A DNA stretch of 64,000 bases from an uncultured Clostridium sp. (GTDB lineage: Bacteria; Bacillota; Clostridia; TANB77; CAG-508): the NCBI GenBank assembly GCA_930980855.1, contig CAKNIZ010000003.1, forward strand, positions 32,338 through 96,337, written 5' to 3'. The translations under genes and the position numbers were made by a program. Each line of letters opens with the position of its first letter. Within the stretch, counting starts at the first letter, position 1. Shown in pieces: positions 915-55,780 of the stretch. The notes below the pieces were generated by a model, which ran no database searches, had not been told where the DNA came from, and worked only from the letters and a program-made list of their open reading frames with translations.

Positions 915-1598
915 ATGAAAAGAGGAAAAAGATATCAAGATAGTGCAAAACTTGTTGATTCTAAGAAATTATATTCAGCAAAAGAAGCAATTGAGATAAT
1001 TGAAAAAATGCCTAAAACAAAATTTGACCAAACTGTTGAATTACATGTTAAATTAGGTGTTGATTCAAAACATGCTGATCAACAAGTTAGAGGAACAGTA
1101 GTTCTTCCAAATGGAACAGGAAAAACTCAAAAAGTTTTAGTTTTTGCAAAAGGACCTAAAGCAGAAGAAGCAAAAGCAGCAGGAGCTGATTTCGTAGGAG
1201 CAGAGGAGTTAATTCCAAAAATTCAAAATGAAAATTGGTTTGATTATGATGTTGTAGTAGCAACACCAGATATGATGGGTGTTGTAGGAAGACTAGGTAA
1301 AGTATTAGGACCAAAAGGATTAATGCCAAACCCTAAATCAGGAACAGTAACAATGGATGTTACAAAAGCAATAAATGAAATCAAATCAGGAAAAGTTGAA
1401 TATAGATTAGATAAAAGTAATATTATTCACTTAGGATTTGGAAAAGTTTCATTTGGTGCAGATAAGCTATTAGAAAACTATAATGTAATCATGGCTGCAA
1501 TTATAAAAGCTAAACCAGCTGCAGCTAAAGGACAATATATTAAGAGTGTATCTATAGCTCCAACAATGGGACCTGGTTTGTATATAGACCAAAAATAA
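915..1598 (+). CDS. rplA: 50S ribosomal protein L1
   Basis: [15 protein letters not shown].. matches the L1 family. I chose the ATG at 915 because AAAGGAGG precedes it; the track ORF start at 873 is an upstream extension. Confidence 0.95.
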
Positions 1599-1599
1599 T

Positions 1600-1798
1600 T
1601 TATAATAGCCAAAGACAGTAGGCAAGAGCTTAAGTCCTACCGAGGTTAATAAGGAGATAAAATCAATCTATTAGCCTTGAGAATGGCTATATAGGTTGAT
1701 TTTTGTAATTGTTAATGGTTATACTATTTGTTAATATCAACAATAATTAACAAAAACATATTGCAAAAGCAAATTAATTTTTAGGAGGTGAATATTAA
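1600..1798 (+). promoter_or_regulatory. Probable ribosomal protein L10 (rplJ) leader with attenuator hairpin
   Basis: A 200-nt untranslated gap lies upstream of rplJ-rplL, where Firmicutes carry the L10 leader. It contains the stem GTAGG..CCTAC (about 1617-1641). A nested hairpin ATCAATCTA-TTAGCC..GGCTA-TATAGGTTGAT (1662-1700) is followed by TTTT. No covariance-model search was run. Confidence 0.5.
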
Positions 1799-4432: not shown

Positions 4433-4460
4433 GAAAGGGTAAGTTTCCCTTTCTTTTTTA
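4433..4460 (+). terminator. Rho-independent terminator after acpP
   Basis: The hairpin AAAGGG-TAAGTT-TCCCTTT is followed by CTTTTTT. Confidence 0.6.
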
Positions 4461-4504: not shown

Positions 4505-4690
4505 CATACGTATACTACTATTTTATTATCACTATAGTATGATTGTATATTTGAACTTTTGGTTCCTTGCGGGAGCTTTGCTCCAAACGCACTTCGCTAA
4601 AGTCCCTTTAGCTCGTTTGAACGCTCACGCGGAACTGCAAAGTTTCAAATATACAATCATATTAAAATAATAATAAGTATTGAATTGTAT
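4505..4690. repeat. Long-hairpin intergenic repeat, copy A
   Basis: A GC-richer core (about 4561-4642) is about 85% identical to the reverse complement of the core at 16881-16965. AT-rich, copy-specific inverted arms flank it (TATGATTGTATATTTGAA.. / ..TTCAAATATACAATCATA). Confidence 0.7.
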
Positions 4691-4771
4691 ATAAAATTGT
4701 TACAGAATTGTAAAAAGAATTTTATTGAAAAAAATAGTAATATATAATAAGATATTAATGGAGGTTTGTAC

Positions 4772-6772
4772 ATGAAAGGGAAAGAAATAGCGGAATTAAT
4801 ATCAACTGCATATGAGATGAAAAATCCAAATAATGCAATTGCGTTATTTGATCTTTTGTGTGACCAAATTAACTTTCCACATTTTGCAGAATATGAAAGA
4901 GGGTATACAGTAGGAAAAAATGGTAGAGCTATCGAAGATGATATTTCCGAATTTATAAAAGCAGTGGAGCAGAAGCTAAAAGGAACAGAAGAGTTAGAAG
5001 GATTCTATGAAAATTTAGAAGATGGTTTTCTTTGCTATATAGATGACGACATCATAAAGTTAAAAAAATTCTTTGAAGAAGGAATTTTTATGACAGGAAG
5101 TATTGTAAAATCCATAAAATCCGATGATATCAAAACAAAGATAATAAAATCAGCATTAAAAAATGGAGAAATCAATTATATTTATATAGATGTATTATCC
5201 TCTATAAATAATGATGAGTTAAAAGAAAAAGTTTTGGAACAAATAGAAGATCCAAGTTTTAGAATATATTTAATATGCTCTTTGAATTCTGACGAACTCA
5301 AAGAAAAGTATATGGAAAGAGTATCACCAGCAGATAGATTTAAAATAATAATATCACTAAAATCAGATGAGTTAAAATTAGAATATGCAAGAACAATCAA
5401 TAAAAATAAATTGCAAGCAGCAATATTAATGCATCTTAAAAGTGACGAACTTAAACTTGAAAACATGAATGAAATTGACATAGCTGTAGTGCAAACTATA
5501 AAATCAGATGATATAAAAATAAAGTGGCTATTAGATAATAGAGAAAAACTTTCAGAAGAAGAAGTATTTAGAATATTGTTTTCTCTTAAAAATGACAATA
5601 TAAAGTTACAAAATATAGATTTACTAGAAGATAGAAACAGTAAAATAGAATTGCTAAATAGAGCTAAAAGACCGGACCTAAAGTTATTAATGCATACGTG
5701 CAACAAATTGGGTATTAATATATTTGATGAATTAATTAATTCAAACAATGGAATTTATCCAGAAAATTATAATAGAAAATGGCAAAAAATAGGAATACCT
5801 CAAGATATGTCTTTTGGAATTGAAATAGAAGCTGCTTCAGAATATGCGTTTTTATATACACAATTTCCTCATATATGTAAAAGATGGGATATGACTAATG
5901 AACGCGTAAATAGAAAGTATTTGGAAGAAGAAAATATTTATATTATAGAAGCAAGTTCTCCAATTCTTTCAGATTGCAATGAGGATATCCAAGATATTTA
6001 TAGAGTATGTACATTATTAAAAAGTGGCGGACTTGAAGTTGAAGATAATTGTGGAGGACATGTTCATATTGGCGCAAATTACTTAACTACAAAAGAATCA
6101 TATCAAAGACTTATAGAACTATGGTGTAACTGTGAAAAAATAATTTTTGAAATTTGTGATGAACCATATAGTGTAAAAAGATTTACTTATGATGATTATG
6201 CAACTCCAATATCAGGTATATTAAAAGAAGGGAAAATAGAGGATGAACAAAACCTGAATAAAGATGAATTTATTGCCCAATTACAAAGTGTCCAAGGAGA
6301 CAGATATAAATCAATAAACTTTGCAAATGTAGGCAAAAAAGCTTCTACTATAGAATTTAGAATACCAAATGGTAGTCTTAATCCAAATGTATGGATTGAA
6401 AATATAAAATTATTTGGCAGAATGATGAAAATAGCAGAGGAGTTAGGAAAATTAGATAATAGGGAAACGAAAGAATATACAAGAGAAGAAAGAAGAAAAC
6501 TATGGCTTGCGACTATGCTTACAAATGCAAATGTACCAGAAGAAGATAAGGCAAAATTTTTAATTAATTTATTATTTGATGAAGAAGAATATAAACAAAT
6601 ATATTTTGAAAGATATAACACAAATAAAGGACAATTTAAAAATGAAAATGATAAATTTTCAATTATAGATTTTAAAAATTTATATAGAGAAATGAACTAT
6701 ATACAAAAAAACAAAGAAAGAAGAGGTAGAGAAAATGGAACAAAGGATGAGGATAGCTTTGACAGAGGTTAA
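4772..6772 (+). CDS. Repeat-rich protein with C-terminal amidoligase (GS-like carboxylate-amine ligase, Amidoligase_2-type) domain
   Basis: The ATG at 4772 follows GGAGG. Residues about 115-300 carry some 8-9 tandem units of about 25 aa containing (I/L)KSD(D/E)(I/L)K. The C-terminal part has the motifs GIEIEA, EASSPIL, CGGHVHIG and IEFRIPNG, which I recognise as the amidoligase pattern. Confidence 0.6.
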   Translation: MKGKEIAELISTAYEMKNPNNAIALFDLLCDQINFPHFAEYERGYTVGKNGRAIEDDISEFIKAVEQKLKGTEELEGFYENLEDGFLCYIDDDIIKLKKFFEEGIFMTGSIVKSIKSDDIKTKIIKSALKNGEINYIYIDVLSSINNDELKEKVLEQIEDPSFRIYLICSLNSDELKEKYMERVSPADRFKIIISLKSDELKLEYARTINKNKLQAAILMHLKSDELKLENMNEIDIAVVQTIKSDDIKIKWLLDNREKLSEEEVFRILFSLKNDNIKLQNIDLLEDRNSKIELLNRAKRPDLKLLMHTCNKLGINIFDELINSNNGIYPENYNRKWQKIGIPQDMSFGIEIEAASEYAFLYTQFPHICKRWDMTNERVNRKYLEEENIYIIEASSPILSDCNEDIQDIYRVCTLLKSGGLEVEDNCGGHVHIGANYLTTKESYQRLIELWCNCEKIIFEICDEPYSVKRFTYDDYATPISGILKEGKIEDEQNLNKDEFIAQLQSVQGDRYKSINFANVGKKASTIEFRIPNGSLNPNVWIENIKLFGRMMKIAEELGKLDNRETKEYTREERRKLWLATMLTNANVPEEDKAKFLINLLFDEEEYKQIYFERYNTNKGQFKNENDKFSIIDFKNLYREMNYIQKNKERRGRENGTKDEDSFDRG

Positions 6773-7196
6773 ATGCGTTTTAGAAAATTCAGAAGATGGG
6801 GTATTAACAAAAATACCAAATAAATTTAAAGAATATCTAAATGCAAATATGGATAAAGAATTTACACCAAGCTTTATTCCAGGACTTGCAATATTTGCAC
6901 AACCAATCTCAATGGAAGCAAAGGAACTCCTAAAATTAGTTTATAGAGATTTCTTAGCAACAGAGGATGAAAGAAAAATACTTATTCAGAAAGAAGAAAA
7001 GATATTAAATACAAATGTAGAACAAGAACAAAATGAAAAAATACAAACAGCTCAAGTGAACGTTTTCGAAAAAAAGGAAGAAAGGCCAAAAGAGAATGAG
7101 CCAATAAAAAATTTGCAACTTATTAAAGTAGAAGAAAAATGGTATAAAAAGCTATTTAGAAGGCTTAAAAAACTTGTAAATGGCACAAAATTATAG
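6747..7196 (+). CDS. Hypothetical protein, overlapping and possibly coupled to the amidoligase gene
   Basis: An ORF of 149-153 aa (ATG at 6735 or 6747) overlaps the end of the upstream gene by 26-38 nt. The composition is coding-like and the C-terminal half is K/E-rich. I recognise no family. Confidence 0.45.
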   Translation: MRIALTEVKCVLENSEDGVLTKIPNKFKEYLNANMDKEFTPSFIPGLAIFAQPISMEAKELLKLVYRDFLATEDERKILIQKEEKILNTNVEQEQNEKIQTAQVNVFEKKEERPKENEPIKNLQLIKVEEKWYKKLFRRLKKLVNGTKL

Positions 7197-13877: not shown

Positions 13878-13889
13878 TTATATATTAAA

Positions 13890-14005
13890 ATTTACAGTAG
13901 TTATATATTCAAAGATTTTTTGTTTCTTGCTGTCGGACACAAAGTCCTCCAAGCTGCACGAAACTGCAAAATCTTGAATATATGATTTAACTATGTGTAG
14001 AAAGA
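13890..14005. repeat. Long-hairpin intergenic repeat, copy B (short/degenerate)
   Basis: It shares the core ends (..TTGTTTCTTGCTG.. / ..GCACGAAACTGCAAAA) with copy A in the same orientation, but lacks about 40 nt of the core centre. It is flanked by its own inverted arms (TTATATATTCAAAGATTTT / AAAATCTTGAATATATGA). Confidence 0.5.
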
Positions 14006-15621: not shown

Positions 15622-16788
15622 ATGTATAATATATTAATTAATAAAAATTATGATGAGAATATAACTAATATTGTGGTTGTACAAGATGGAAAAGTTGTTG
15701 AAATATATAATGAAAATTTAGATGAGGAAAGATTAGAAGGTAACATATATTTAGGAAAAGTTAAGAATATAATGCCTGGTATGCAATCTGCTTTTATAGA
15801 TATTGGAGAAGATAAAAATGCCTTAGTACATATAAAAGATTTAATTCCAAAAGCAAGTGATGTGACTGGTAATGTATTTGAAGATACATCTAAAATGGAT
15901 ATTTCAAAAATTGTAAAATCAGGGGACGAAATATTAGTTCAAGTAAAAAGGGATTGTAATAAGCAAAAAGGACCAAGAGTTACTACAGATATTAAGTTGT
16001 ATGGTAGATTTATAATACTATTACCTTGTTCAAAATTTATTACTATATCTCAAAAAATAGAAAATAAAAAAGAAGAGAAAAGGTTAAAAGCAATAGTAAA
16101 AAATAATATGCCAGAAGAATATGGAGCAATCATAAGAACTGTTGCTGAAGGTAGAAATGAAGAAGAAATAGTAGATGAAATAAATATATTAAGGAATATG
16201 TGGAAGTCAATATTAGGAAATGTGGAAAACATAAAAAATAAGAAATTTGCTCCAGTACAAATTTTTGATAATTCTGGAATTACAGGGAAAATTATTACTG
16301 ATTTAGCTGAGAATAATTTGGAAAAAATATATACTAATATGGAAACATTAAAAGATAAGTATTTAGATTTAAAAGATAAAATAGAAATTGTAGATAATCC
16401 TTTAGAAAAATTTGAAGCTCAAAAACATATGAATCTTAATAGAAAGTTATGGCTTAAATGTGGAGGGTTTATAACTATAGACTGTACAGAAGCCTTAACT
16501 GCTATAGATGTAAATTCTGCTAAATTTACAGGAAAAAGAGAATTAGAAAAAACAGTGCTTAAAGTTAATATGGAAGCTACAGAAGAGATAACTAAACAGA
16601 TTAGATTACGTGACATAGGTGGAATTATTATAATAGACTATATAGATATGGAAAATGAAGAAGATAGGGAAAAGATAAGAAATTATATTGTAGAATGCTT
16701 TAAAAATGATAGATCAAAAGTACAAGTATTAGAATTTACTAAACTTGGATTATTAGAAATTACTAGAAAACATATTTTTGGAAGATAA
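15622..16788 (+). CDS. rng: Ribonuclease E/G family protein (short form)
   Basis: S1 domain GNIYLGKVKNIMPGMQSAFIDIGEDKNALVHI and the catalytic region ..TAIDVNSAKF.. ..IGGIIIIDYIDM.. I chose the ATG at 15622, after AAGAGG. Confidence 0.8.
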   Translation: MYNILINKNYDENITNIVVVQDGKVVEIYNENLDEERLEGNIYLGKVKNIMPGMQSAFIDIGEDKNALVHIKDLIPKASDVTGNVFEDTSKMDISKIVKSGDEILVQVKRDCNKQKGPRVTTDIKLYGRFIILLPCSKFITISQKIENKKEEKRLKAIVKNNMPEEYGAIIRTVAEGRNEEEIVDEINILRNMWKSILGNVENIKNKKFAPVQIFDNSGITGKIITDLAENNLEKIYTNMETLKDKYLDLKDKIEIVDNPLEKFEAQKHMNLNRKLWLKCGGFITIDCTEALTAIDVNSAKFTGKRELEKTVLKVNMEATEEITKQIRLRDIGGIIIIDYIDMENEEDREKIRNYIVECFKNDRSKVQVLEFTKLGLLEITRKHIFGR

Positions 16789-16810
16789 GTTATAATAAAA
16801 AAAGATTGCT

Positions 16811-17031
16811 TTAATTAAATTTTGATTTTTTGTTACTTATTAAAAACTTTAATATCATTAAAAAAGTATGTTAGTAGATTTTGCAGCTCCGCGTAAGCGT
16901 TCAAACGAGCTGGAAGGATTCCAGCGAAGTGCGTTTGGAGCGAAGCGACCGCAAGGAGCCAAAAATTTACTAACATACTTTTAAGTAATATTAGAATTCT
17001 ATTAAGTAATAAAAAAATCAAAATTTAATTA
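16811..17031. repeat. Long-hairpin intergenic repeat, copy C (about 220-bp near-palindrome)
   Basis: Arms of about 75 nt (AATTAAATTTTGATTTTTTGTTACTTAT..AAAAGTATGTTAGTAGATTTT and its complement at 16966-17031) enclose the conserved GC-richer core at 16881-16965. It fills the whole gap between the convergent rng and acyl-CoA ligase genes. Confidence 0.75.
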
Positions 17032-17036
17032 CAATA

Positions 17037-18752
17037 TTAATTTTTAAATTTTTTACAAGCTTTTGCAATTTTCTTCATTTCCTCATTTCTTTTAATTTTT
17101 TGAGTAGTTGTTTTTATAAGAGGATCTGAAGAAATTATAATTTGTCTAATATACTTATAAGCTGGCATTTGTTTATTAATTTTTGTTTTTATATCATTCC
17201 AAATTTTATCACAATATTCATTGTCTTTTATACCTGGAAAAGCTTTCTTTAATTCTTCTTCGTCATATATAATTTTAGCACAAAGTGTTACATCTGTATT
17301 TCTATCTAATTTAGAATTATCTAGTAAGCCAAATACCATACTTTCTGTCACATATGGAAGTTTATTAATTAATATTTCTAATTCTTCTGGAAAAATTTTT
17401 TTACCATTTTTTAAAACTATCATATCTTTTTTTCTGCCAGTTACAAAAAGAAATCCATCATTATCTATATATCCTAAGTCTCCCGTATAGAAATATCCAT
17501 CTTTTAGTACTTCATTAGTTGCTTCTTCATTTTTATAATATCCAAGCATTATTGCTGGAGTTTTTGTAATAATTTCACCAATTCCATTTGCATCTGGATT
17601 ATCTATTTTAATTTCAATTGTTGGAAGCGGGAAGCCAACTGAACCAGTTTTCTTATGAAAACTATTTTCACCTGCAATAACAGGAGCTGTTTCAGTAAGG
17701 CCATATCCTTGATGAACATCAAAACCAAAATCATTGTAACCTTTTATGGTCTCCTTATCCATCGGAGCACCACCAGCTATTATTGTTCTTAACTTTCCAC
17801 CAAGCCCATCTATAATAGATTTAAATATTTTTCTCTTAGTTTCAATATTTGAATGTCTAAATAATACTCTCATAATATTTACAAGAACTGTTTTCTTTTG
17901 CTCTTTTATTGTTTTTAGTATTTTTTTATACATTATTTCAAGCATTAAAGGAACACATACAAATCCTGTTACTTGGTATTCAACTAAATTTTTTTGGATA
18001 TATTTTAAACCATCACAAATAGCTATTGTTATACCACAAGATGTTCCAAAAAGAAAAGTGGTTGTACTTTCAAATGTATGATGAAGTGGTAAAAAAGATA
18101 AAAATTTATCTTCTGTTGTTATTTCTATCATTTGGCTAAGTGCATATAAATCCATACAAATAGCATATTGTGAAAGCATAACCGCTTTTGCAATACTTGT
18201 TGTACCAGAAGTAAATAAAATAATACTCATTTCTTTATTATTAATTGAAATATCATTATATGATTTATGGTCTAATTTTTTGCCTTCTTTTAATAATTGT
18301 GAGTAAGATAAAATAGTGTCTTTTTCTTCTGATAAATCCATACATATTTTTATTTTACAATTAGATTTATTTACTGCATCTAAGTATTTTGAACTAAAAA
18401 TAATACTATCTGCTTCACTTCTTTTTAATAAATCTAATAATTCATTTTCAGGTAGAGATTTATCTAAGGGAACTACAACTAAACCAGCGGTAGTGATTGC
18501 TAAATAACTTACGCACCATTCATATCTATTATCTGCTATTAATGCAACTCTTTTACAATTTTGATTTAAAAGACTACATGCTAAATCTTCTATATCTTTT
18601 GCAAATTGCTTATACGTTACTTTTATATGTTCAGTAGAATCTGGAGATTCTTTGTATTCAAAAGCAATAAGGTCTTTATACTTGGCTTTGTATAAATTTA
18701 CCAACTCACGAAAGTCATTTAATTTTTGACCTTCATATAATTTATTGTTCAT
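17037..18752 (-). CDS. Long-chain acyl-CoA synthetase (AMP-binding family)
   Basis: AMP-binding motifs ILFTSGTTSIAKAVMLS, GYGLTETAP and YFYTGDLGYIDNDGFLFVTGRKKD. 571 aa. Confidence 0.85.
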   Translation of the reverse strand: MNNKLYEGQKLNDFRELVNLYKAKYKDLIAFEYKESPDSTEHIKVTYKQFAKDIEDLACSLLNQNCKRVALIADNRYEWCVSYLAITTAGLVVVPLDKSLPENELLDLLKRSEADSIIFSSKYLDAVNKSNCKIKICMDLSEEKDTILSYSQLLKEGKKLDHKSYNDISINNKEMSIILFTSGTTSIAKAVMLSQYAICMDLYALSQMIEITTEDKFLSFLPLHHTFESTTTFLFGTSCGITIAICDGLKYIQKNLVEYQVTGFVCVPLMLEIMYKKILKTIKEQKKTVLVNIMRVLFRHSNIETKRKIFKSIIDGLGGKLRTIIAGGAPMDKETIKGYNDFGFDVHQGYGLTETAPVIAGENSFHKKTGSVGFPLPTIEIKIDNPDANGIGEIITKTPAIMLGYYKNEEATNEVLKDGYFYTGDLGYIDNDGFLFVTGRKKDMIVLKNGKKIFPEELEILINKLPYVTESMVFGLLDNSKLDRNTDVTLCAKIIYDEEELKKAFPGIKDNEYCDKIWNDIKTKINKQMPAYKYIRQIIISSDPLIKTTTQKIKRNEEMKKIAKACKKFKN

Positions 18753-25963: not shown

Positions 25964-25990
25964 AAAAGAGGAAAAATTCCTCTTTTTACA
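25964..25990. terminator. Possible bidirectional terminator hairpin
   Basis: AAGAGG-AAAAATT-CCTCTT is flanked by A and T runs, between convergent genes. Confidence 0.45.
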
Positions 25991-27927
25991 TAAATAAACT
26001 AAACACTCCATTAATTAGCATACATAGTATTATTCCAATAGTAGTAGGAAGTATAAATGAAATAATACACCATTTCCAACTTTTTGTTTCTTTTTTTATA
26101 GTAAGTAATGTTGTACCACATGGGAAATGTAATAACGAAAATATCATAACATTTATGGCAGTTACTATAGTCCAGCCATTAGCGCTTAGTATATTAAATA
26201 TACTGTGAATATTATCCATTTCAACTAGACTTCCGGTTTGCATGTAGCACATAAGTATAATTGGTAAAACAATTTCATTTGCAGGAAGACCTAATATAAA
26301 TGCTGTTAAAATGTATCCGTCCAATCCCATAAGTTTAGCAAATGGGTCAAAGAAGTTTGCTATATATGTAAGTAAACTTATATCCGAAATTTGAATATTA
26401 GAAAGTATCCAAATTATAATTCCAGCAGGTATAGCAACAGATAAAGCTCTTCCTAGTACAAATAAAGTTCTATCAACTAATGAATGAATTAATATTTTAC
26501 CAAATTGAGGTTTTCTATAGGGTGGAAGTTCCAATAAAGTGCAATTTGTAGAACCTTTTAATATCGTTTTAGAAAGTACATAAGAAATTAGAAAAGTAAA
26601 ACCTATACCAATACATATTACAGTAAAGACTATGAATGTAGATATAAGGCTGGATTTTAAACTTTCTCCTGAATATATGGCTCCACTAAAGAAAATTGTA
26701 GCTATTGTAATTAGAAAAGGGAATCTTCCATTGCAGGGAACAAAACTATTTGTGAGTATGGCAATTAGTCTTTCACGAGGCGAACTAATAATTCTGCATC
26801 CTATTACACCAGCAGCATTACATCCAAATCCCATGCACATAGTTAGTGCTTGTTTTCCAGAAGAACAACATTTTTTAAAACATTTATCTAGGTTAAATGC
26901 AATTCTTGGTAGATATCCTAAATCCTCTAAAAGAGTAAATAAAGGGAAGAATATACACATTGGAGGTAGCATAACACTAACAATCCAAGTTACTGTTTTA
27001 TATACTCCATTAAATAGTAAGGAAAGTAGCCAACTAGGAGTGTTAATGTTTATAAAAAAGTTTTCTAATATTGGTCTTAAAAAGCTAAAGAATTGTGACA
27101 AAAGTTCAGATGGATAATTTGCGCCTACGATGGTAATCCAAAAAATGAGACAGAAAAAGAGTATCATAATTGGAATACCAAACTTTTTTGATGTTAGTAT
27201 TTTGTCTATTTTTTTATCTCTTTCATTATAATTTTCATTTTCAATAGTACAAACCTCAGATGTAATTTCATTTGCTTTAGCAAAAACTTTTTCTAAGAAA
27301 TCTTTGTCTGTTATACATTCTTCTATTCTATTGGGAGTAGGAGAGATTGCATTAGTGCAAACTTTTTGAGTGGTAACCATTAAATTTTGTAATGTCTTTT
27401 TCTTTCTCGCAATTGTACCAACAACAGGAACTCCAAGTATGGTAGATAATTTTTCAAGATTAATTTTAATTCCTTTTTTCCTAGCTTCATCTAATAAATT
27501 CACACAAACAATTACTTTATCTGTTAAATTCATTATTTGATATACCAAGTTTAAATTTCTTTCTAAACATGTTGCATCAACTATAACTAATGTAACATCT
27601 GCTTTTCCAGAACTTATATAGTCTTTTGCAACTTTCTCTTCTTCAGAATCTGTGAGCAAAGAGTAAGTTCCGAGGGATATCTACTAACAAGTATTTTTTA
27701 TTATTATATGTACATATTCCAGCAGCATTTTCAACAGTTTTGCCAGTCCAATTTCCGGTATGTTGATGCATCCCTGTAAGACCATTGAAAATAGTAGACT
27801 TTCCAACATTGGGATTTCCAGCTATTGCAATGGTATAATCGTAATTATTAAAATCATTTATATTAGATATAATCTTATTCCCAGTAGAGTTTTTAGATAG
27901 TCCCATATATGCCTCCTGCTTAATCAT
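25986..27927 (-). pseudogene. feoB: Ferrous iron transporter FeoB, disrupted by a 1-nt frameshift
   Basis: The ORF at 27643-27927 encodes the G-domain ([25 protein letters not shown]) and then leaves frame. The ORF at 25986-27659 continues with ..[14 protein letters not shown].. and the membrane domain. Removing one C from GATATCCCTCGGAAC (about 27671-27676, minus-strand reading) restores [15 protein letters not shown]. Confidence 0.85.
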
Positions 27928-28187: not shown

Positions 28188-28586
28188 ATGAAGGCAGGAA
28201 AAAAATTAAGTGAAATAACAGGAAATGAAACATTGAACACAGTTGCCTATGATAGTTTAGGAAACAAAGTAGTAATTCCAGCAAAGTTTAAAGTATTGAA
28301 CCCGACGGATAATGTAGAAAATGGAATAATAATTGAGGATGTTGGTGCCGGTAATAATAATACAAAAGGAAATCAATTTATATGGATACCAATAGGGAAA
28401 ATAAAAACGACTGAAGGAGAAAAAGAAATAACTTTTGGAAGATATACATATAATCATATAACTCAACCGCAAGCAGCAAGTTTATGTCAAAGTATGTATA
28501 GTAATAATAATTTTACAAGTTACCGCGGTTTTGGAACTGCAAATTATAAATATAATATGGTAGCTAGACCTATTTTATATTTGTAA
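28188..28586 (+). CDS. Hypothetical protein, possibly the downstream part of a split gene
   Basis: 132-aa ORF. A 25-codon ORF at 28114-28188 (MKKESKVQNNKRRRIITLMIVMILK) looks like the signal-anchor of the same gene, cut off by a frameshift. I recognise no family with confidence. Confidence 0.35.
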   Translation: MKAGKKLSEITGNETLNTVAYDSLGNKVVIPAKFKVLNPTDNVENGIIIEDVGAGNNNTKGNQFIWIPIGKIKTTEGEKEITFGRYTYNHITQPQAASLCQSMYSNNNFTSYRGFGTANYKYNMVARPILYL

Positions 28587-29789: not shown

Positions 29790-31100
29790 ATGGTAAGCGT
29801 AAGAAAACGTGGAAAGGTATATGAATACCGATTTGAAATAGCAACAGTTGATGGAACAAGAAAATGGATAACGAAGTCAGGTTATTCAACAAAATCAGAA
29901 GCATTTAAGGAGGGAGCAAAAGCCTATAATGATTATTATTACAATGGAAACAAAGTACAATTAAAAGAAAATATGTCCTATGCAGATTTTTTAGATTATT
30001 GGATAGATACTTATGCTAGTTTTAATTTGCATTATTCGACTACAATATCTTATATAAATATTATTAAGAATCACGTTAAGCCGAGAATAGGATTTTATAA
30101 ATTATGGCAATTAGATACAAGATTATTGCAAGAATTTATAAATAAAATATATGTTGAATATGCTTTTTCTAAAAATTATATGGCAAGTATTTTGAAAGTT
30201 GTTAAAGGTTCTCTAAAGTATGCGTGTTATACATTAAATTATATTAACACTGATCCGGCAGAACACGTTCATACTCCAAGAATAGATAAAATTGATACTG
30301 ATCCTGCACACATATTTACTCAAGAGGAAATAGAGAGAATATTGGAGAGATTTAAAGGAACACACTCAATTTATTATTCATTTTTAACTGCTTATTATAC
30401 AGGAATGAGAGTATCTGAAGTATATGGGTTGACTTGGGACTGCATTGATTTCAATAAAAAGACATTGACTATAAATAAAAATATAATCAAAAAAAATCAA
30501 TATGGATTACCAAAAAGAAAAAATATTACTAAAGGACATTCGGTTGGAGTTTGGTATTATGGAGATTGTAAAAATCCACAAAGTAAAAGAACTATATCTA
30601 TTGGTGATACTTTAGTAAATGCTTTAAAAGAATATAAAAAAGAGCAGGAGGAAAATCAAAAGTTTTATGGCGACTCATATCTTTATTATTATGAAAAGAG
30701 AGTATTAAATGATATTACTAAAAAAGAGGAAATAAAATTAGTTGAAGCAAAAGCAGAATTAGAAGTTGCTTTACCAAAGGCTGAATTAGTTTTTGTTAAA
30801 GAAAATGGACAGTTTTTAGGAACTGATTCGCCAAAATACGCGTTTAAAGTAATTCATTATGAATTAGGTATTAATAGTAGATTTCACGATTTCAGAGATA
30901 CGCACGCAACTAGGTTAATTGAAAATGGTGCAGATATTAAAGCAGTATCAAAAAGATTAGGACATTCTAGCATACAAACTACTTATAATATTTATGTTAA
31001 AGTTACAAACAAAATGGAAACTGAAACAGTAGATAAATTTGAAGAATATACTAATACTTTAAATATTCCTCAAACATTAGAAATTCCATATCAAGTATGA
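29790..31100 (+). CDS. int: Tyrosine site-specific integrase with an AP2-like N-terminal arm-binding domain
   Basis: The N-terminus VRKRGKVYEYRFEIATVDGTRKWITKSGYSTKSEA is AP2-like. The catalytic region carries ..TGMRVSEVYGLTW.. and HDFRDTHATRLIENGADIKAVSKRLGHSSIQTTYNIY (R..HxxR..Y). Confidence 0.92.
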   Translation: MVSVRKRGKVYEYRFEIATVDGTRKWITKSGYSTKSEAFKEGAKAYNDYYYNGNKVQLKENMSYADFLDYWIDTYASFNLHYSTTISYINIIKNHVKPRIGFYKLWQLDTRLLQEFINKIYVEYAFSKNYMASILKVVKGSLKYACYTLNYINTDPAEHVHTPRIDKIDTDPAHIFTQEEIERILERFKGTHSIYYSFLTAYYTGMRVSEVYGLTWDCIDFNKKTLTINKNIIKKNQYGLPKRKNITKGHSVGVWYYGDCKNPQSKRTISIGDTLVNALKEYKKEQEENQKFYGDSYLYYYEKRVLNDITKKEEIKLVEAKAELEVALPKAELVFVKENGQFLGTDSPKYAFKVIHYELGINSRFHDFRDTHATRLIENGADIKAVSKRLGHSSIQTTYNIYVKVTNKMETETVDKFEEYTNTLNIPQTLEIPYQV

Positions 31101-31165: not shown

Positions 31166-31315
31166 ATGAGTAAAATAAAGTTAAAAGTAGATAGTTTAGA
31201 ATACGGAATGCTTGTGAATGGATTAGTTGAATTAAGGAACAAGTTATTAAGAGAAAAAGAAGATACAACTCCTATTGATGAATTATTAATAAAATTAGTA
31301 GATAAGAAAGGATAA
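31166..31315 (+). CDS. Small conserved ICE protein (49 aa), paralog of the ORF at 55574-55780; not in the supplied ORF track
   Basis: AAAGGAG lies 8 nt upstream of the ATG at 31166. The translation is MSKIKLKVDSLEYGMLVNGLVELRNKLLREKEDTTPIDELLIKLVDKKG. It shares LxNxLLREKEDTxPxDExLxK and an identical 24-nt string (TTATTAAGAGAAAAAGAAGATACA) with 55574-55780. Confidence 0.5.
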   Translation: MSKIKLKVDSLEYGMLVNGLVELRNKLLREKEDTTPIDELLIKLVDKKG

Positions 31316-38479: not shown

Positions 38480-41400
38480 ATGGAGGTGATTATATTGGCT
38501 AGAAGAATTAGAGATATTACTGCTCTATATGGAGAAACATTGCAAGATTTAACTAAAAATCCAGAGGAATGGGTTTCTTTTATGGAATGTGCTGCAATGA
38601 ATTATAAATATTCTTTCTCCGATCAAGCACTTATTTATGCTCAAAAGCCAGAAACTATTGCTTGTGCTGAAATTGAAACGTGGAATAAAGCATTTAAAAG
38701 GTGGGTAAATAAAGGAGCAACTGGTATTGCTTTACTAACTGAAAAAAATGGATACCCATATATGAGATATGTTTTTGATGTATCAGATACGAATAGTAGA
38801 TTAGGTAAAAACTTTCTTCTTTGGACTGTTACAAAAGCATACGAAGAATATGTTATTGAAGTATTGGAAAATAGATATGGCGAGTTAGAGGATAAAAGTT
38901 CACTTGCAAATGCAATTATTTCATCAGCATATAATATGGTAGAAGATAATTTGCCCGATTATTTGGAAGATTTAAAACAATTTTCAAATAACAGTATATT
39001 AGGCTCACAAGACGATACTCATATAAAAGCAACTTATCAAAGTTTATTATCTAATAGTGTTGCTTTTATGATGATGAAAAGATGTGGGATTGATCCTAAT
39101 GAATACTTTAAAGCAGATGATTTTAAAGATATAAAAGAGTTCAATACTTACGATACAATAACAAGATTAGGTATTGCTACAAGTGATATATCAGAAATGG
39201 GTTTGCGTGAAATATATTCTACTATTAAAAATGTGCGAATAAATGAAATAGATAAAATTCGCACATTTGATAAAGAAAATCAAAAAGATTATGATATAAG
39301 TGATAACAGAAATATTGAAAGTGAAAGGAGCGAGGAATATGAAAGAAATAACTTACACAATGCAGGGAGATTACAGAATACCAGACCTAATGCTACCACA
39401 GAAAGAGAGAAAAGAGGTCAATGGGAAATACGCATTGATGAGGTTAAGATACCTAAAAGACCACAAGAAAGCATTATACACGACACTTCTAATGAAAGAC
39501 CAGTTGATGGAACACCTATCAGAGATACAGGAACAAGTAGAAACGAAAGTGGAACAATTAGTATCACAGATGATGAAACAAGAAAACGTGACGGAAGAAT
39601 TGAAACAACAAGACCAAATGAGATGGGTGGGCTTGATGAACAACTTGAAGATATCAGCAGAGGAGATAGCAACGAAAGAACTAATTTACAATTAGGTGTG
39701 TTTGATAAGGACAGTAGTAACTGTCCTTATGTTGTTATAGACGCAAAAGTAAATCAGATATTAAGTTTTGCTAATTTAAAAGTTACTAATGAAGAAATTA
39801 AAAATTATTTTGAAACTGAAAAAAATAGAACTAAAAGGGCAGAATATCTTAAAAATGCTTTTGATAATGTTTATGTTGGTATTTTTATTGAAACAGAATT
39901 ATATGGGTATAAAGCATTTGACAATGGACTTTTAATTTGGAAAGGAAATTTCTTATCAAGAGATACAGAAAGTTTTATAAGTTGGGAAGATTTGACTGAC
40001 CACTATAATTCAATGATATTGTTGCACCAATTATATGATCGAAAACAAAAGTTACCAACTGAAAAAGAACAATTATCATTATTAGACCTTAACGAGAAAC
40101 AAGAAAGACCAGAGTTAGAATTTTCACAAGAGTTTATAGATACTTTTTTTCAAGAACAAAACCCTGAAAGAAAGTTTTATATTTATAGACAATTACAAAG
40201 TAGTTTGTCTACAAATGAGAATATAACATTTTTAAAAAATCTCTATGGATTAAGTGGAAGTACCCATACAGTAAAAGGCTCTGGTGTTGGATTTGATAGT
40301 AGTAGCAAAGGTATTACTTTATATCGTGGATATGAAGCAGATGAAATAGAAATTTTATTGAAATGGAATAATATTGAAAAAAGACTAAAAGAACTAATCA
40401 AATTAGACCGTTATCTAAATCCAAAGGAAATGGAGTATTATCCGAAGTGGCTAGAAGAACACGAAAATAGTCAAAAAGAAGAATATGAAGATACTCTGGA
40501 ACAAGAAGAAAAAAATGATACTGAAATTATAGAAGAAAATGTAGATTATATAGAAGAATATGAGTATCATTTAGGAGATAAAGTCTATATTGGTGCAGAC
40601 GAATATGAGATTATTTCTTTTGATGATAATACAGTCAGACTATATGATTACCAATATCCATTGTTTAATCAAGAATTTTCAAGAGAAGAATTTGATAGGA
40701 AAGTTCAAGAAAATCCTGCAAATGACCATTTAAAAGTCAGAAAATTAAAACAAGAAGAACAAACATCTCCTAATGAATATGGAGAGTTTAATGATGAAGT
40801 TGATCTTGTTGAACACATCTTGCACCAACATAAGATATTTGATATAAAAGTGAATTTTAACTCTGATGAAGAAATCGTGGGTTATGATGATGAAAATGAG
40901 TGGGTAGGAAAAGAATTATATGATTTTCTATTTAATCAATTATTTGAATATAATGATGATGGAACTGTTAAATTAGTTGATAAAAATGATATAGAAAGAT
41001 TAAAAGAATATCAAAAGAAATACGAAGTTGCAGAAAAACAAAAAGAAGAACTAGATGATTTAATTGGAGAACATCTAACAATAGATAACAGAAAGTTTAT
41101 TGTAGATAGTATCAATAATGATAGAGTATCATTAAAAGATATTACTTTTCAAGGAACAACTGGTTTTCCAATATTTAGAGATGAAAGTATAGACTATGTA
41201 AAAGAATTACTGGCTGAAAAGGAAAAAGCAGAGTTTGTACCTGTTTTTGAGAAAAAGAAAAAATCAAGAATTACTACTTTTGATTTACACCCAGAAATTA
41301 AAAATGAAGATAGAAATAATTTTCATATTACTGATGATATGTTAGGAGTAGGAACAGACAGGGAAAAGTTTAATCGAAATATTGCTGCAATAAAAGTTTT

Positions 41401-44400
41401 GAAACTATGTGAAAAAGAAAATCGTTTTGCAACTCCTGAAGAACAAAAAGTGTTATCACAGTATGTTGGTTGGGGTGGATTACCACAAGCATTTGATGAT
41501 AAAAATAGTTCGTGGTCTAGTGAATATTTAGAATTAAAGAATTTATTAGATGAAGATGAATACAAATCAGCAATGGAATCTACTTTAACTGCTTTTTATA
41601 CACCACCTGTTGTTATTAGAACAATGTATAAAGCATTAGAGCAAATGGGTATGAAAACGGCAAATATCCTAGAGCCTGCGTGTGGAACTGGTAATTTTAT
41701 AGGAATGTTGCCAGATACTCTTAACGAATGTAAGTTATATGGTGTTGAACTCGATAAAATATCTGGTAAAATAGCACAACAATTATATCAAAAGAGTTCT
41801 ATTGCAGTACAAGGTTTTGAAAACACGGTACTTCCAGACTCTTTTTTTGATGGTTGTATTGGAAACGTACCTTTTGGAGATTTTAAATTATTAGATAAAA
41901 AGTATGATAAAAATAATTTTTTAATCCACGATTATTTCTTCGCAAAAGCCATAGATAAAGTCAGACCGGGTGGAGTAATTGCTTTTATTACGAGCAAAGG
42001 AACATTAGATAAAGAAAGCCCTGCTGTACGAAAATATATTGCTCAAAGAGCAGACCTTTTAGGGGCTATTCGTTTGCCAGATAATACTTTCAAAGCAAAT
42101 GCAGGAACAAAAGTAACATCAGATATTATATTCCTACAAAAAAGAGATTCTATTACAGATTTAGAGCCAGAATGGGTACATTTAGATACAAATGAAGATG
42201 GTATCAAAATGAATAAATATTTTATAGATCACCCAGAGATGATCTGTGGTAATATGGTAATGGAGTCAACACAATTTGGAATGGACTCTACTTGTAAAGC
42301 AAATGAAGATACTACACTTGAAGAACAATTAAATGACGCAATTCAAAATATACACGCCGAAATAAAAGAATATGAATTTGATGACATTGGAGAAGATGAA
42401 GAAGATTTATCTATTCCTGCAGATGTTAATGTTAGAAATTTCTCATACACGCTTGTAGATAACAAAATATATTACCGTGAAAATAGTAGAATGTATCCAC
42501 AAGAATTACCACTAACGACACAAAATAGAATAAAAGGCTTAATTGAAATTAGAGATTGCGTCAGAACTCTAATTGAACTACAAACAGAAGATTATCCAGA
42601 TGAAGAAATAAAACAAGAACAGAAAAAATTGAATACTTTGTATGATAATTTTATAAAGAAATATGGATTAATCAATAGCAGAGCAAATACCTCTGCTTTT
42701 TCTAATGATAATAGTTTTTATTTGTTATGCTCATTAGAAATATTAGATGAAAATAAAGAATTAAAAAATAAAGCAGATATGTTTACTAAAAGGACTATTA
42801 AGCCGAATATTCAAATAACAAAAGTCGATACTGCACAAGAAGCATTAGTTGTATCTATATCTGAAAAAGCAAGAGTTGACCTTGATTATATGCAACAGTT
42901 ATGTGGTATAGATATGGATAAGATGTTAGAAGATTTAGAGGGACAAATATTCAATGTTCCTATTTATGGTGATCCTAATGTATGGGTAACTGCCGATGAA
43001 TATTTAAGTGGTAATGTTCGTGAAAAATTAAAAATAGCAGAAGAATTTGCCAAAACTGATTCAAGGTTTGAAACAAATGTAAAACATCTAAAAGAAGTAC
43101 AGCCAAAAGATTTAGAAGCAAGCGAAATTGCCGTAAGATTAGGTGCAACGTGGCTTCCACCAGAAGATATAGAAGAATTTATATGGTATTTACTAACTCC
43201 TTCGTGGTATGTAAAAGATAATGTAAAAGTGCATTATATGGAAAGTACGGCACAATGGAGTATTGAAAATAAGAATTATGATAGAGGTAATGTAAAAGCA
43301 AATTCGACTTTTGGTACTCATAGAGTGAATGCTTATAAGATCATAGAAGAAACACTTAATTTAAAAGATGTTAGGGTATATGATTATACAATAGATGATG
43401 AGGGTAGAAGAATACCAGAATTAAATAAAAAGGAAACGGCTATTGCTCAAGCCAAGCAAGAACAAATTAAGACTGCTTTTGAAGAATGGATATGGACTGA
43501 TCCAGAACGTAGGCAAAGACTATGTAAAATGTATAATGAAAAATTTAACTCAATTCGACCACGAGAATATGATGGCTCACATATAAGGTTTGATGGAATG
43601 AATCCAGAAATAAAACTTCGTAAACATCAAATCAATGGAATTGCCAGAATACTTTATGGAGGGAACACCCTATTAGCACACGAAGTTGGAGCAGGGAAAA
43701 CATTTACAATGGTCGCTGCTGCAATGGAAGCAAAAAGATTAGGTCTATGCAACAAGAGTATGTTTGTTGTTCCTAATCATATAGTAGAGCAATTTAGTTC
43801 GGAGTTTTTGCAATTATATCCGTCTGCCAACATTCTCGTAACGACAAAGAAAGATTTTGAAACAGGAAACAGAAAAAAGTTTTGTTCAAGAATTGCAACA
43901 GGAGATTATGACGCAGTTATCATTTCACACAGTCAATTTGAAAAAATACCAATGTCAGTTGAAAGACAGACACAAATACTTCAAAAACAGATAGATGATA
44001 TTATGAGAAGTATTACCGATTTAAAAGAAAATCACGGAGAACGATTTACTATTAAACAACTAATGAAAACACAAAAAAGTTTGGAAACAAAATTAAAGAA
44101 ACTCAATGACACATCAAGAAAAGATGATGTTGTAACATTTGAGGAATTAGGAGTAGATAGAATATTTGTTGATGAGGCACATTATTATAAAAATCTTTTT
44201 CTTTATACTAAAATGAGAAATGTTGGAGGAATAGCACAAACGGAAGCACAAAAGTCTAGCGATTTATTTATGAAATGTCGTTATCTTGATGAACTAACTG
44301 GAGGAAAAGGAGTAACTTTTGCGACAGGAACACCAGTAAGTAACAGTATGGTAGAGTTATATACAATGCAAAGGTACTTACAGTACGCAGAACTTGAAAA

Positions 44401-52557: not shown

Positions 52558-53922
52558 GTGAGGAAAATTGCTACAACAGGAATATGGAAAATAGAAAAAA
52601 GACTGGATCACGTTATAGATTATACAACTAATATAGAAAAAACTCTTAATAGTGAATATGGAAGAGAAACATATTATGACTTGCATAATGTAATTGACTA
52701 CGTTGAAGCAGATTTTAAAACAGAGAAACAATACTATGTTTCTGGTGTAAACTGTAATGTTGAAACTGCTTATGAGGAAATGATTATTACAAAACAACAA
52801 TACAATAAGACAAGTGGTATTTTAGGGTTTCACGCATTTCAAAGTTTTGCAGAGGGAGAAGTAACACCAGAACAAGCCCATTTAATTGGTTTAAAACTTG
52901 CCGAAGAAATGTGGGGAGATAGATTTGAAGTAATCGTTAGCACTCACTTAAATACAAAACATTATCATAATCATTTTGTTATCAATTCCGTTAGTTTTAA
53001 AGATGGCAAAAGATACTATGATAATAGAACAACTTATGCAAGATTAAGAGAGTTGTCAGATTCGCTTTGTCAAGAATATGGATTAAATGTTCTTGAAGAA
53101 AAGCCGTGTAGAAATAGTAAAATAAATTATGCTAATTACTACAAAGGATATGTAGAAAAGAACAATTACTATACTACGACAAAGGCAGATATTGATAGAG
53201 CCATTGCACAAGCATATTCATATAAAGACTTTGAAAATCTAATGAGAGCAATGGACTATGAACTCACTTATCGTGGGCAAAACATATTAAGTGTAAGACG
53301 TGATCCTTACAAAAAGAATATCAGAGTAGAAAGAAACTTTGGTAAAGATTATAGTATTCAAAGAATTAAGGAAAGAATAGAAACAGAACAAGAAAAGAGA
53401 ATACCATTTATAGAAGAATATGGTGTTAAGAAGAAAAGATATACTCCAAAGATAAAGCAAAAACACAAAGGACTATATGGACTGTTTCTTCATTATTGTT
53501 ATTTATTAAAGGTCTTTCCAGAAAAATATCCACGAAGAAAATTAAGTCCTGCTATTCGAGCAGACATAAAAGAAATGGATAATATATCAAAACAAACAGA
53601 ATTGCTTGTAAGTAATAAATTAGAAACTTACGAGCAATTTTTTGCATTTAAGACACAAAAAACGAAAGAATTAGATAATTTGTTAGATCAGAGGAGCAAA
53701 TTGTGGTACAAGCATAAAAAATCTAAAAATCCAAGTGAAAAGCAAATGATTAGAAATCAAATTGATGAGTTATCTATTTCTATAAAAGAATTACGAAAGG
53801 AGGTGGTTTTATGTGATGAAATAGAGGAAAGAAGTTCTAAAATAGAACAGAATGTAAAAGACTTTGAAGAAGAACAAAGAAAGGAGGAAATCAAGAATGA
53901 ACACATCAGGGGACGCTGCTGA
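52558..53922 (+). CDS. Relaxase/mobilisation nuclease (MobA/VirD2-type, PF03432-like)
   Basis: ..ATTGIWKIEKRLDHVIDYTTN.. is a typical relaxase N-terminus. The His triad is HLNTKHYHNHFVINS, and a long coiled C-terminus follows. The start is a non-ATG codon (GTG at 52558 or ATT at 52567). Confidence 0.85.
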   Translation: MRKIATTGIWKIEKRLDHVIDYTTNIEKTLNSEYGRETYYDLHNVIDYVEADFKTEKQYYVSGVNCNVETAYEEMIITKQQYNKTSGILGFHAFQSFAEGEVTPEQAHLIGLKLAEEMWGDRFEVIVSTHLNTKHYHNHFVINSVSFKDGKRYYDNRTTYARLRELSDSLCQEYGLNVLEEKPCRNSKINYANYYKGYVEKNNYYTTTKADIDRAIAQAYSYKDFENLMRAMDYELTYRGQNILSVRRDPYKKNIRVERNFGKDYSIQRIKERIETEQEKRIPFIEEYGVKKKRYTPKIKQKHKGLYGLFLHYCYLLKVFPEKYPRRKLSPAIRADIKEMDNISKQTELLVSNKLETYEQFFAFKTQKTKELDNLLDQRSKLWYKHKKSKNPSEKQMIRNQIDELSISIKELRKEVVLCDEIEERSSKIEQNVKDFEEEQRKEEIKNEHIRGRC

Positions 53923-55573: not shown

Positions 55574-55780
55574 ATGAGAGAAACTGTAAAAGTATTGGAA
55601 TTAGATAAATACGAAATTGGCATAATTATCAATGCTCTTAATGAATTTAGAAATAGATTATTAAGAGAAAAAGAAGATACAGAGCCAGTTGATGAAGTAT
55701 TACTAAAAGCCATTGACGCTCCAGAAAAAAAAAGACCTTTTTCAAGGTGCTTAACGAAAGATGAAAGAGGATACTTCTAA
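55574..55780 (+). CDS. Small conserved ICE protein, paralog of 31166-31315
   Basis: 68 aa with ..NALNEFRNRLLREKEDTEPVDEVLLKAID.. It overlaps the T4CP start by 20 nt. Confidence 0.5.
   Translation: MRETVKVLELDKYEIGIIINALNEFRNRLLREKEDTEPVDEVLLKAIDAPEKKRPFSRCLTKDERGYF

Follow-up and report, generated by a model that had tools for sequence, protein, structure and literature searches.

Several described systems stand close to the repeats reported here. Among MITEs, Correia/NEMIS of Neisseria, RUP of pneumococcus and ERIC/IRU of enterobacteria have a target-site duplication (TSD) of TA, whereas that of the present family is 8 bp. REPINs are mobilised by RAYT (Y1, tyrosine/HUH) transposases, and compensatory changes across the two sides of their hairpins have been reported to be common (PMC3116915). 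In Clostridia and gut metagenomes, TwoAYGGAY (RF01731) has been proposed as a CsrA-binding RNA (PMC4333381). The family described below is a previously undescribed, lineage-restricted, non-coding mobile repeat of an uncultured low-GC, gut-type member of the Clostridia, and an ordinary kind of selfish DNA. We read its members as palindromic mobile repeats of the MITE/foldback type that are also REPIN-like, a reading to which we assign a probability of about 0.68.

Three copies lie at sites A, B and C of the window, the whole 64,000-nt stretch of clostridial DNA that was analysed, and have in common an asymmetric GC-rich core set between AT-rich inverted arms (Table 1). The sequences and coordinates quoted in an earlier sequence-only reading of this DNA are all correct, and its central claim, that the three sites share a GC-richer core, holds. 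The degenerate family pattern matches exactly A, B and C in the window, where chance would give no match, and the covariance model, run with filters off over the 64-kb window, finds these three copies and no more. Copy A is matched by the model at 4535-4664 with 57 bits; copy C scores 54.8 bits on the plus strand and 25.7 on the opposite one. The core of A (4554-4641) is 85% complementary to that of C (16880-16967) across 88 nt, which places the two in opposite orientation. Copies C, A and B fold with -81, -63.1 and -33.3 kcal/mol, respectively (z -9.9, -7.5 and -5.2 against shuffles, none of which folded as well). Where a core of about 85 nt had been attributed to all three sites, A and C carry a long form of 83 nt and B carries a short form of 52 nt, the commoner of the two, which is the long form without a 37-nt internal segment carrying the GGA hairpin. 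The apical and basal stems that had been quoted, GCTGGAA against GCTAAAG among them, are all present.

The near-palindrome recognised earlier at copy C does fill its convergent gap, and with 248 bp it occupies the whole distance between the genes for RNase G (15622-16788, +) and an AMP-binding protein (17037-18752, -); the flanks outside its unit are complementary in their own right (z 5.6). Copy A, whose arms of 39 nt each are 85% complementary, lies between a canonical ACP terminator (4433-4453, from a terminator scan) and an amidoligase gene that starts at ~4766. Copy B is situated between polysaccharide deacetylase and Sua5/TsaC genes and has a degenerate terminal inverted repeat (TIR), ATTAAAATTTACAGT (~13881-13895), on one side only. 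In all three window copies the TIRs are degenerate or missing, and within the mobile-repeat explanation as a whole these sites are probably old, partly decayed copies of the family.

Table 1. Repeat features in the window, with strand and the observations that define them.
Feature	Position	Strand	Basis or detail
Copy C, whole nested palindrome (outer arms and unit)	16798..17045	+	Inverted repeat 16798-16831/17012-17045
Copy C, arms and long-form core unit	16856..16988	+	Covariance model 54.8 bits, E 1.7e-11
Copy C, long-form core, 83 nt	16881..16963	+	Pattern match, alignment, pair counts
Copy C, parts of the core			Basal stem GCTCC/GGAGC; apical hairpin GCTGGAA-GGA-TTCCAGC; side hairpin GC-GAA-GC
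Copy A, whole element	4505..4690	-	Fold; arms 4523-4561/4638-4676
Copy A, long-form core, 83 nt	4558..4640	-	Basal stem GTTCC/GGAAC; apical hairpin GCTAAAG-GGA-CTTTAGC
Copy B, site	13890..14005	-	
Copy B, arms and short-form core unit	13893..13993	-	Covariance model 102.3 bits
Copy B, short-form core, 52 nt	13918..13969	-	Basal stem GTTTC/GAAAC; hairpin GGAC-TTTGT-GTCC after GGAG
Candidate collapsed element remnant, GTTACA-GAATTGTAA (outer TIR halves)	4699..4713		Also in L118; uncertain, read from sequence

The basic unit of the family has the consensus AATTGTATATTCAAGATT - core - AATCTTTGAATATACAATT, in which the arms are AT-rich and inverted. It had been noted that the arms pair within a copy and differ between copies; this is so, but they are homologous, having diverged from that one consensus. 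The short core reads TTGCAG-GTTTC-GCGCAG-TTTGGAG-[GAC TTTAC GTC]-CGACAGCAAG-GAAAC-AAAA, and the long form has 37 extra nt (CGCGCA|AGCGTTCAAACGAGCTGGAAGGATTCCAGCGAAGTGC|GTTTGGAG), which hold a hairpin of 7 bp whose loop is GGA. The core is built on a 5-bp basal stem, GYTYC/GRARC, followed by a hairpin after GGAG whose length varies from GC-GAA-GC up to CTATAAAATTC-TTTG-GAATTTTATTAG, and the conserved junctions are TTGCAG, CGCG, TTTGGAG, CGAC and GCAAG. Basal stems of the family are GTTTC/GAAAC, GTTCC/GGAAC, GCTCC/GGAGC, GTCTC/GAGAC and GTTCT/AGAAC, with GGCAC/GTGGC in a species at 80% identity in RNase G. The long-form alignment holds nine distinct sequences, with the apical stems GCTGGAA/TTCCAGC, GCCGGAA/TTCCGGC, GCTAAAG/CTTTAGC, GCTAGAA/TTCTAGC, GCTGAAA/TTTTCAGC and GCTTAAAA/TTTTAAGC; eight of the nine have A(A/G)GGA(U/C) as their apical loop. 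The unpaired core sequences are fixed among the long forms despite strongly diverged arms. The internal helix TTCAAACG/CGTTTGGA of the long form and an RNAalifold alternative are indistinguishable, as both fall in a region without any variation. Units measure 87-125 bp and the composite element described below 155 bp, and no ORF fits them.

The core is by no means confined to the three sites, an outcome that would have told against the sequence-only reading: from sampled DNA of the organism amounting to ~0.35 Mb, an nhmmer profile search of fetched contigs recovered ~44 distinct copies. In a scan of 596 Gb, with one genome per species, the exact pattern gave true matches in one MAG only, CALXVF01 ('uncultured Clostridia bacterium BRZ_ES__bin90'; n=10). 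A pattern scan of a metagenome collection gave 31 matches, all in the single assembly ERZ1643247, some stretches of whose contigs are identical to the window. The remaining ~22 genome matches come from DNA with a GC content of 0.31-0.68 (the organism's is <=0.31) and have no family arms, and by our own estimate their number is of the order expected by chance. A single diverged copy, together with two hairpins that consist of arms only, is present in the 80% species (L111), and no family copies were found in ~20-kb samples of relatives at 86%, 76% and 72%. Viral contigs and plasmid and phage collections held no family match. Rfam, searched at gathering and at permissive thresholds with the window and with single elements, gave no real match, in line with the earlier failure to recognise a named family.

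Nearly all copies are intergenic, 25 of them between tandem, eight between convergent and five between divergent gene pairs. The core is antisense to the flanking tandem genes in 18/25 cases and sense in 7/25, a weak bias. Many copies stand at contig ends, as expected because the repeat breaks short-read assemblies. The window corresponds to scaffold_272 of assembly ERZ28573932. The organism's Pth protein is present in 65 index blocks of a public assembly collection, and the organism therefore occurs in many metagenome samples. Other candidate identities were set aside: a hammerhead-like reading of the reverse strand, CUGUCGGAC...CGAAAC, is missing CUGAUGA and is negative in Rfam; an attC-like reading of GTTAC...GTAAC has the wrong order and consensus and no cassette array; and an IS200/IS605-derived PATE, which would have unlike subterminal hairpins at its two ends and neither TIR nor TSD, was rejected given a single central hairpin with TIRs and TSDs present.

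How the family spreads is best seen in a young, abundant and near-identical subfamily, where the unit is central in a 155-bp element with the layout GTTACAATTCACAGC - 18 nt (X) - unit - 18 nt (Y') - GCTGTGAATTGTAAC. The two ends form 15-bp TIRs, which are present in 16 copies, and the boundaries GTTAC...GTAAC are sharp, with conservation of ~90% inside and ~40% outside. On average the 8-bp flanks of the 16 copies are identical at 5.3 of 8 positions, against 2.8 +/- 0.36 when permuted, a value that 0 of 20,000 permutations match; at least 7/8 positions are identical in six of the 16, and three in the first set are perfect. One copy is nested in the arm of another with a perfect TSD, TTGAAACT. 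TIRs together with 8-bp TSDs indicate insertion through staggered cuts. The family thus has what is expected of a MITE, being small, non-coding and multicopy with sharp-ended TIRs, a TSD of fixed length and insertion polymorphism, and of the identities offered in the sequence-only reading a MITE or palindrome-associated element was the right one.

Neither the window nor 285 kb of contigs from the organism yielded an autonomous element or a transposase with the family TIRs, and the collections of plasmids and phages likewise gave none; a search with the lone TIR for a parent IS returned the nested copy only. The ORFs of the window include an ICE, and a transposase is absent from them. A Y1_Tnp fragment, compared by tblastn with 0.63 Mb of sampled AT-rich loci, matched only L113, its own source, with none in the organism. 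One ORF family alone is repeated in the loci; considered as a parent IS, it was rejected, since its members are 60-70% identical, carry no Pfam domain and resemble paralogues. Several young near-consensus copies consist of bare arms and core within unique, non-palindromic flanks, and around them no TIR or target duplication was seen; a second mode of spreading is therefore needed. The unit is also exactly central in three different outer inverted repeats, namely the TIR element, the outer arms of copy C and the GATAGATAGTTGAAATTTAAA repeat of L063.

Comparison with relatives, whose loci were fetched via RNase G and PlsX homologues, shows copies coming and going. At the site of copy B, relatives at 94-98% (L108, L118 and L128) are empty, with a 13-bp gene junction, and the 98% relative L118 lacks copy A, its place being taken by 42 nt of unrelated sequence; at both sites extra differences blur the junctions, and neither is a clean empty site. 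At the copy C locus the core is in plus orientation in the window and in minus orientation in L108 (95%) and L123-L128 (94%), and since the breakpoints fall within the arms, the core has flipped in place. In five of these samples (L123-L127) the basal stem at copy C is a hybrid, GCTCC/GAAAC, that contains two mismatches, and the loop reads GAA, so that an uncompensated intermediate persists naturally. Relative to the non-identical X and Y sub-arms, too, the core is found both ways round (L002, L067, L068). No promoter-like site was found in the core and no recombinase nearby, and both orientations are known between strains only.

In further relatives the copy C locus has other contents: an ordinary terminator hairpin in the 86% relative, the arm hairpin AAAAAATTGTATATTTAAAATTTTCAAATATACAATTTTTT alone, with the core absent, in the 80% relative, and in the 76% relative a hairpin of similar stem, AAAAAAGATGTATAAA...TTTATACATCTTTTT, that is split by an IS. 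Arms without a core in a related genome had been named beforehand as an observation that would count against the sequence-only reading; they occur at one locus (L111), where deletion of the core is the likelier direction because collapsed remnants of full elements are known. Thus the first element of L034 is full, and in L004 it is a TIR stub, TTGCGA-ATTGTAGC (MAG against ERZ1643247, 93-99% nucleotide identity). At L079:439-488, family arms surround a 20-nt AT-rich centre. Full elements collapsed to stubs make interior deletion a common fate, and because such collapse is observed we read arm-only hairpins as remnants, not precursors. Beside copy A, the sequence GTTACA-GAATTGTAA resembles the L004 stub.

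The double changes to which the sequence-only reading had drawn attention are real. In the long-form alignment 96.1% of cells are paired and 19 of 43 pairs have changed on both sides, a count that 0 of 500 shuffles reach and that compares with 2-6 pairs in slid controls. The short-form alignment is similar: 96.5% of its cells are paired, both partners have changed in 14 of 30 pairs (0 of 500 shuffles; slid controls 3-6 pairs), and in it 10 of the 19 arm pairs have changed on both sides. One-sided changes, however, yield G·U and A·C almost equally (13 vs 12), and the two strands fold with equal stability (-52.6 and -53.4 kcal/mol). Pairing is maintained, yet the strand signature of an RNA is missing.

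Palindromic DNA has its own routes to matched arms. In quasi-palindrome mutagenesis, intrastrand template switching turns the mismatches of an imperfect repeat into perfect pairs, and conversion by arm-to-arm recombination likewise restores perfect pairing. Given the parity of G·U and A·C, the strand symmetry, the flips, the persisting hybrid stem and the precedent of REPINs, we take double changes to be what a DNA palindrome would be expected to show. Selection on an RNA accounts for the pattern no better than does templated correction within the palindrome combined with constraints on propagation, and such correction is probably the source of the double changes. Base-pair-preserving changes alone are no proof of a functional RNA, and the selection on a folded RNA or DNA that had been deduced from them is not established.

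In the mobile-repeat explanation, young elements are inserted by staggered cuts, presumably by a DDE-type transposase that acts in trans and was not found here, and copies are gained and lost between strains. Through its inverted arms the asymmetric core flips in place, and interior deletion leaves hairpins of arms or TIRs only. Paired changes would arise mainly at the DNA level, as arm-to-arm conversion and quasi-palindrome template switching copy a change across; lineage sorting of master copies, which would have to keep their foldback and core in order to propagate, may add to them. Resident copies are probably tolerated because of their intergenic position. Those flanked by an A-run and a T-run, such as copy C, probably replace the bidirectional terminator of relatives, and copy C is probably the default terminator of the RNase G and AMP-binding genes.

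The action of a terminal-repeat transposase leaves the invariance of the unpaired core and of the GGA loop unaccounted for; this invariance could reflect an RNA or protein-binding function. We hold it doubtful, on balance, that the core is a structured module recognised by sequence or shape, whether a CsrA-type sponge or terminator-linked RNA or a HUH-like mobilisation hairpin. In the HUH-like variant, a single-strand system would move TIR-less units without target duplication and would flip them. The design recurs in a second repeat family: its arms are ATATATGGTTTAGAATTC, its core is GC-rich, the loop of its covarying hairpin reads AGGGAC/GAGGAC, and it, too, is flipped between strains. The bare units, the centred position of the unit, the fixed loops and this second family keep both protein-binding-RNA and loop-targeting readings alive.

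It seems unlikely to us that the unit encodes a small structured RNA, as a gene or a module, and is merely carried along by the mobile element, with a CsrA-type sRNA as the candidate; so does the transcription that it would draw from promoter-like sequences at the element ends or from read-through of neighbours. Its helices covary, its junctions and loops are fixed, the ARGGAY loop of all but one of the long forms fits the CsrA-site consensus, and the second family, unrelated-looking and in the same genome, has a covarying hairpin of the same kind; but neither the balance of G·U and A·C nor the folding energy shows strand asymmetry, a core that flips in place turns GGA into UCC on a fixed transcript, and the abundant short form is without the GGA hairpin. 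The antisense placement of the core (18/25 tandem pairs) would suit such an RNA. So would the strongest promoter-like sequences of a 2-kb stretch, which are the inward TTCACA-17-TATAAT and TTCACA-17-TAAAAT at the element ends, yet promoter-like matches overall are at chance level for AT-rich DNA and the window copies have none; moreover, the copies are too similar for conservation of the hexamers to be separated from that of the spacer. A weak match of the short form to TwoAYGGAY (24.8 bits, E 0.056) is far under the gathering score of 43 and involves the outer AT-rich stem only, both AYGGAY hairpins being deleted. Copy C, a long form and the second family gave no match to the TwoAYGGAY model, and spurious matches to miRNA precursors reach equal E-values.

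It is quite improbable that the GC-rich core alone is mobile and enters the loops of pre-existing AT-rich palindromes such as terminators and other inverted repeats, although this would account for arms that pair within a copy and differ between copies with no need of compensation. The coreless hairpin of the 80% relative at the copy C locus, the similar hairpin of the 76% relative, the AT-rich centre at L079:439-488 and the central position of the unit in three outer inverted repeats can all be taken in this sense. Against it, all arms, those of the 80% species included, fit one consensus, and point changes are mirrored in the partner arm; for 16/17 TIR-less units the flanks are non-palindromic (z < 2.7), and since full elements collapse to terminal hairpins, arm-only hairpins are readily understood as deletion products. 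Very unlikely, in turn, is the proposal that the elements are host terminators or insulators under host selection, passively duplicated and not mobile. Many units do have A-run and T-run flanks, for example the inner AAAAAAGTATG...CATACTTTT of copy C (A6, T4) and those of L106 (A6 and T7), and copy C is the sole hairpin between its convergent genes, where relatives carry ordinary terminator hairpins. The terminator scan, however, whose rules omit A/T-run flanks beside an AT-rich stem, finds no terminator at the elements; copy A lies just 3' of a canonical terminator and is not needed there, and copy B occupies a gene junction that measures 13 bp in relatives, for which reasons the elements are not simply terminators. 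Five copies stand between divergent genes, and TIRs, 8-bp duplications and a nested insertion show active transposition.

As mobile palindromic repeats, these elements add a well-characterised MITE/foldback family to the poorly known uncultured low-GC Clostridia. The family breaks short-read assemblies and marks differences between strains, through presence or absence and through flipped cores. It also shows that DNA palindromes can yield strong, shuffle-beating covariation with no strand-specific RNA signature, and covariation alone should therefore not make RNA genes of repeats. Taken together, the orthologous flip, the hybrid stem and the collapsed elements offer a natural series in which the evolution of palindromic repeats could be followed. 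The family would be considerably more interesting if its core turned out to be an RNA that binds protein or to act as the handle of a novel mobilisation system.

Among known systems, parvovirus terminal repeats, chloroplast loop inversions and gut invertons resemble the family in their asymmetric centre and in the occurrence of both orientations at one locus, from which it differs in having no recombinase gene or promoter in the segment, in a size of 50-90 bp and in that its inversions are seen between strains. TwoAYGGAY has in common with it a long AT-rich outer stem around GC-richer hairpins, a GGA-containing loop and an occurrence in low-GC gut Firmicutes; it has two AYGGAY hairpins, whereas the long forms of the family have one ARGGAY loop and the short forms none. 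REPINs are likewise long hairpins made from inverted conserved arms, with compensation on both sides (PMC3116915), persistence in a lineage, and singlet or remnant forms comparable to the family's TIR-less units without TSD. They have no TIRs or TSDs, however, whereas the composite element has both, with a TSD of 8 bp; the RAYT/Y1 transposase was not found in the organism's sampled DNA; and the conserved part of a REPIN is its two ends, that of the family its centre. The MITEs Correia/NEMIS, RUP and ERIC/IRU, which have no sequence similarity to the family in the collections searched, agree with it in being small (the composite element of the family has ~155 bp), non-coding, AT-rich, intergenic and multicopy, and in their TIRs, their TSD, the long hairpin formed by the whole element, size variants arising from indels and restriction to a lineage. 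What sets the family apart from them is a conserved, asymmetric GC-rich centre, which also stands alone without TIR or TSD.

Several side observations concern family 1, the hairpin repeat family of window copies A, B and C. In one composite element (L094:4030-4115), the left arm and 5′ core are replaced by a different GC-rich insert (GTGAGCGTAGGCGACGTAGGAGCAGAGCATAACGTACGAGTGCTAAGCGAAGCGAACCACGAAG), which hints at exchangeable core modules. At L063:4520-4700, a unit is surrounded by an outer inverted repeat, TAGATAGATAGTTGAAATTTAAA, within which two convergent genes end; on either side of the unit, the repeat provides a stop codon for every reading frame. Another composite element begins 4 nt past the end of a reverse transcriptase gene; within this gene, 556 bp are deleted in the related strain of metagenome assembly ERZ1643247 (L061:~5388-5394).

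Two relatives of the organism carry an IS or an IS-like element near genes of the compared loci. The IS of the 76% relative interrupts a terminator hairpin that separates RNase G from an AMP-binding gene, and the entire ~27-bp hairpin is duplicated, with one on each side of the IS. The IS200-like element of the 72% relative lies downstream of the ACP gene, a position equivalent to that of window copy A.

The integrated conjugative element (ICE) of the window contains none of the hairpin repeats. Besides the integrase, helicase protein and relaxase located in the table, it encodes ParA/ParB, a SpaA/thioester adhesin with sortase, DUF3848/DUF3991-Toprim and DUF3801. Beside it, FeoB (25986-27927, minus strand) is apparently split into a 557-aa ORF, which lacks the start of the N-domain, and an upstream 94-aa ORF; in relatives FeoB is a single 639-aa gene. 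This may represent a frameshift or a pseudogene. A paralogous ORF family, represented in the window by a fragment, has members of ~415–445 aa that are 60–70% identical and carry no Pfam domain. A (TA)n microsatellite lies near the family ORF in three of the four loci (e.g. L048:3581-3603, L061:~7320 and L102:~2210) and may indicate phase variation. The ribosomal protein L10 leader is the sole Rfam family to reach its gathering score in the window.

Coordinates of features in the window and in compared loci (L-numbers)
Feature	Location	Strand	Details
L10 leader	window 1591-1714	+	RF00557, 47.8 bits
Paralogous ORF family	L048:3691-5025; L086:1056-2297; L061:6109-7239; window 28188-28586		window: fragment
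ICE	window 29790-64000		
ICE tyrosine integrase	window 29790-31100		
ICE direct repeat	window 31185-31294 and 55599-55708		110 nt, 72% identical
ICE SNF2-type helicase protein	window 38480-46084		2534 aa
ICE MobA/VirD2 relaxase	window 52558-53922		
Reverse transcriptase gene	L031:2038-3246	+	402 aa, RVT_1, YVDD motif
IS, 76% relative	L116:3060-4135		DUF772 + DDE_Tnp_1_6 fragments, long TIRs GTTTGTTGACAAAGTATATAAAAATATTTTGTT
IS200-like element, 72% relative	L113:1560-2140		72-aa Y1_Tnp fragment, GC-rich end hairpins
Second repeat family	L032:5330-5420; L079:2915-3015; L003:2800-2900 and 7075-7160; L037:~1235-1325; L082:10570-10660; L084:600-700 and 4515-4615		

The loci also contain a second family of repeats, built to the same plan as family 1. 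Between an A-run and a T-run, its copies have arms ATATATGGTTTAGAATTC and an asymmetric core that is GC-rich. The core reads ...CCGGAGC-AGGGAC-GCTCCGG..., in which the stem covaries and the RGGAC loop is fixed, and at one shared locus its orientation is inverted between the MAG CALXVF01 and the ERZ1643247 strain. GCGAAG/GTGAGC motifs are common to the second family and family 1.
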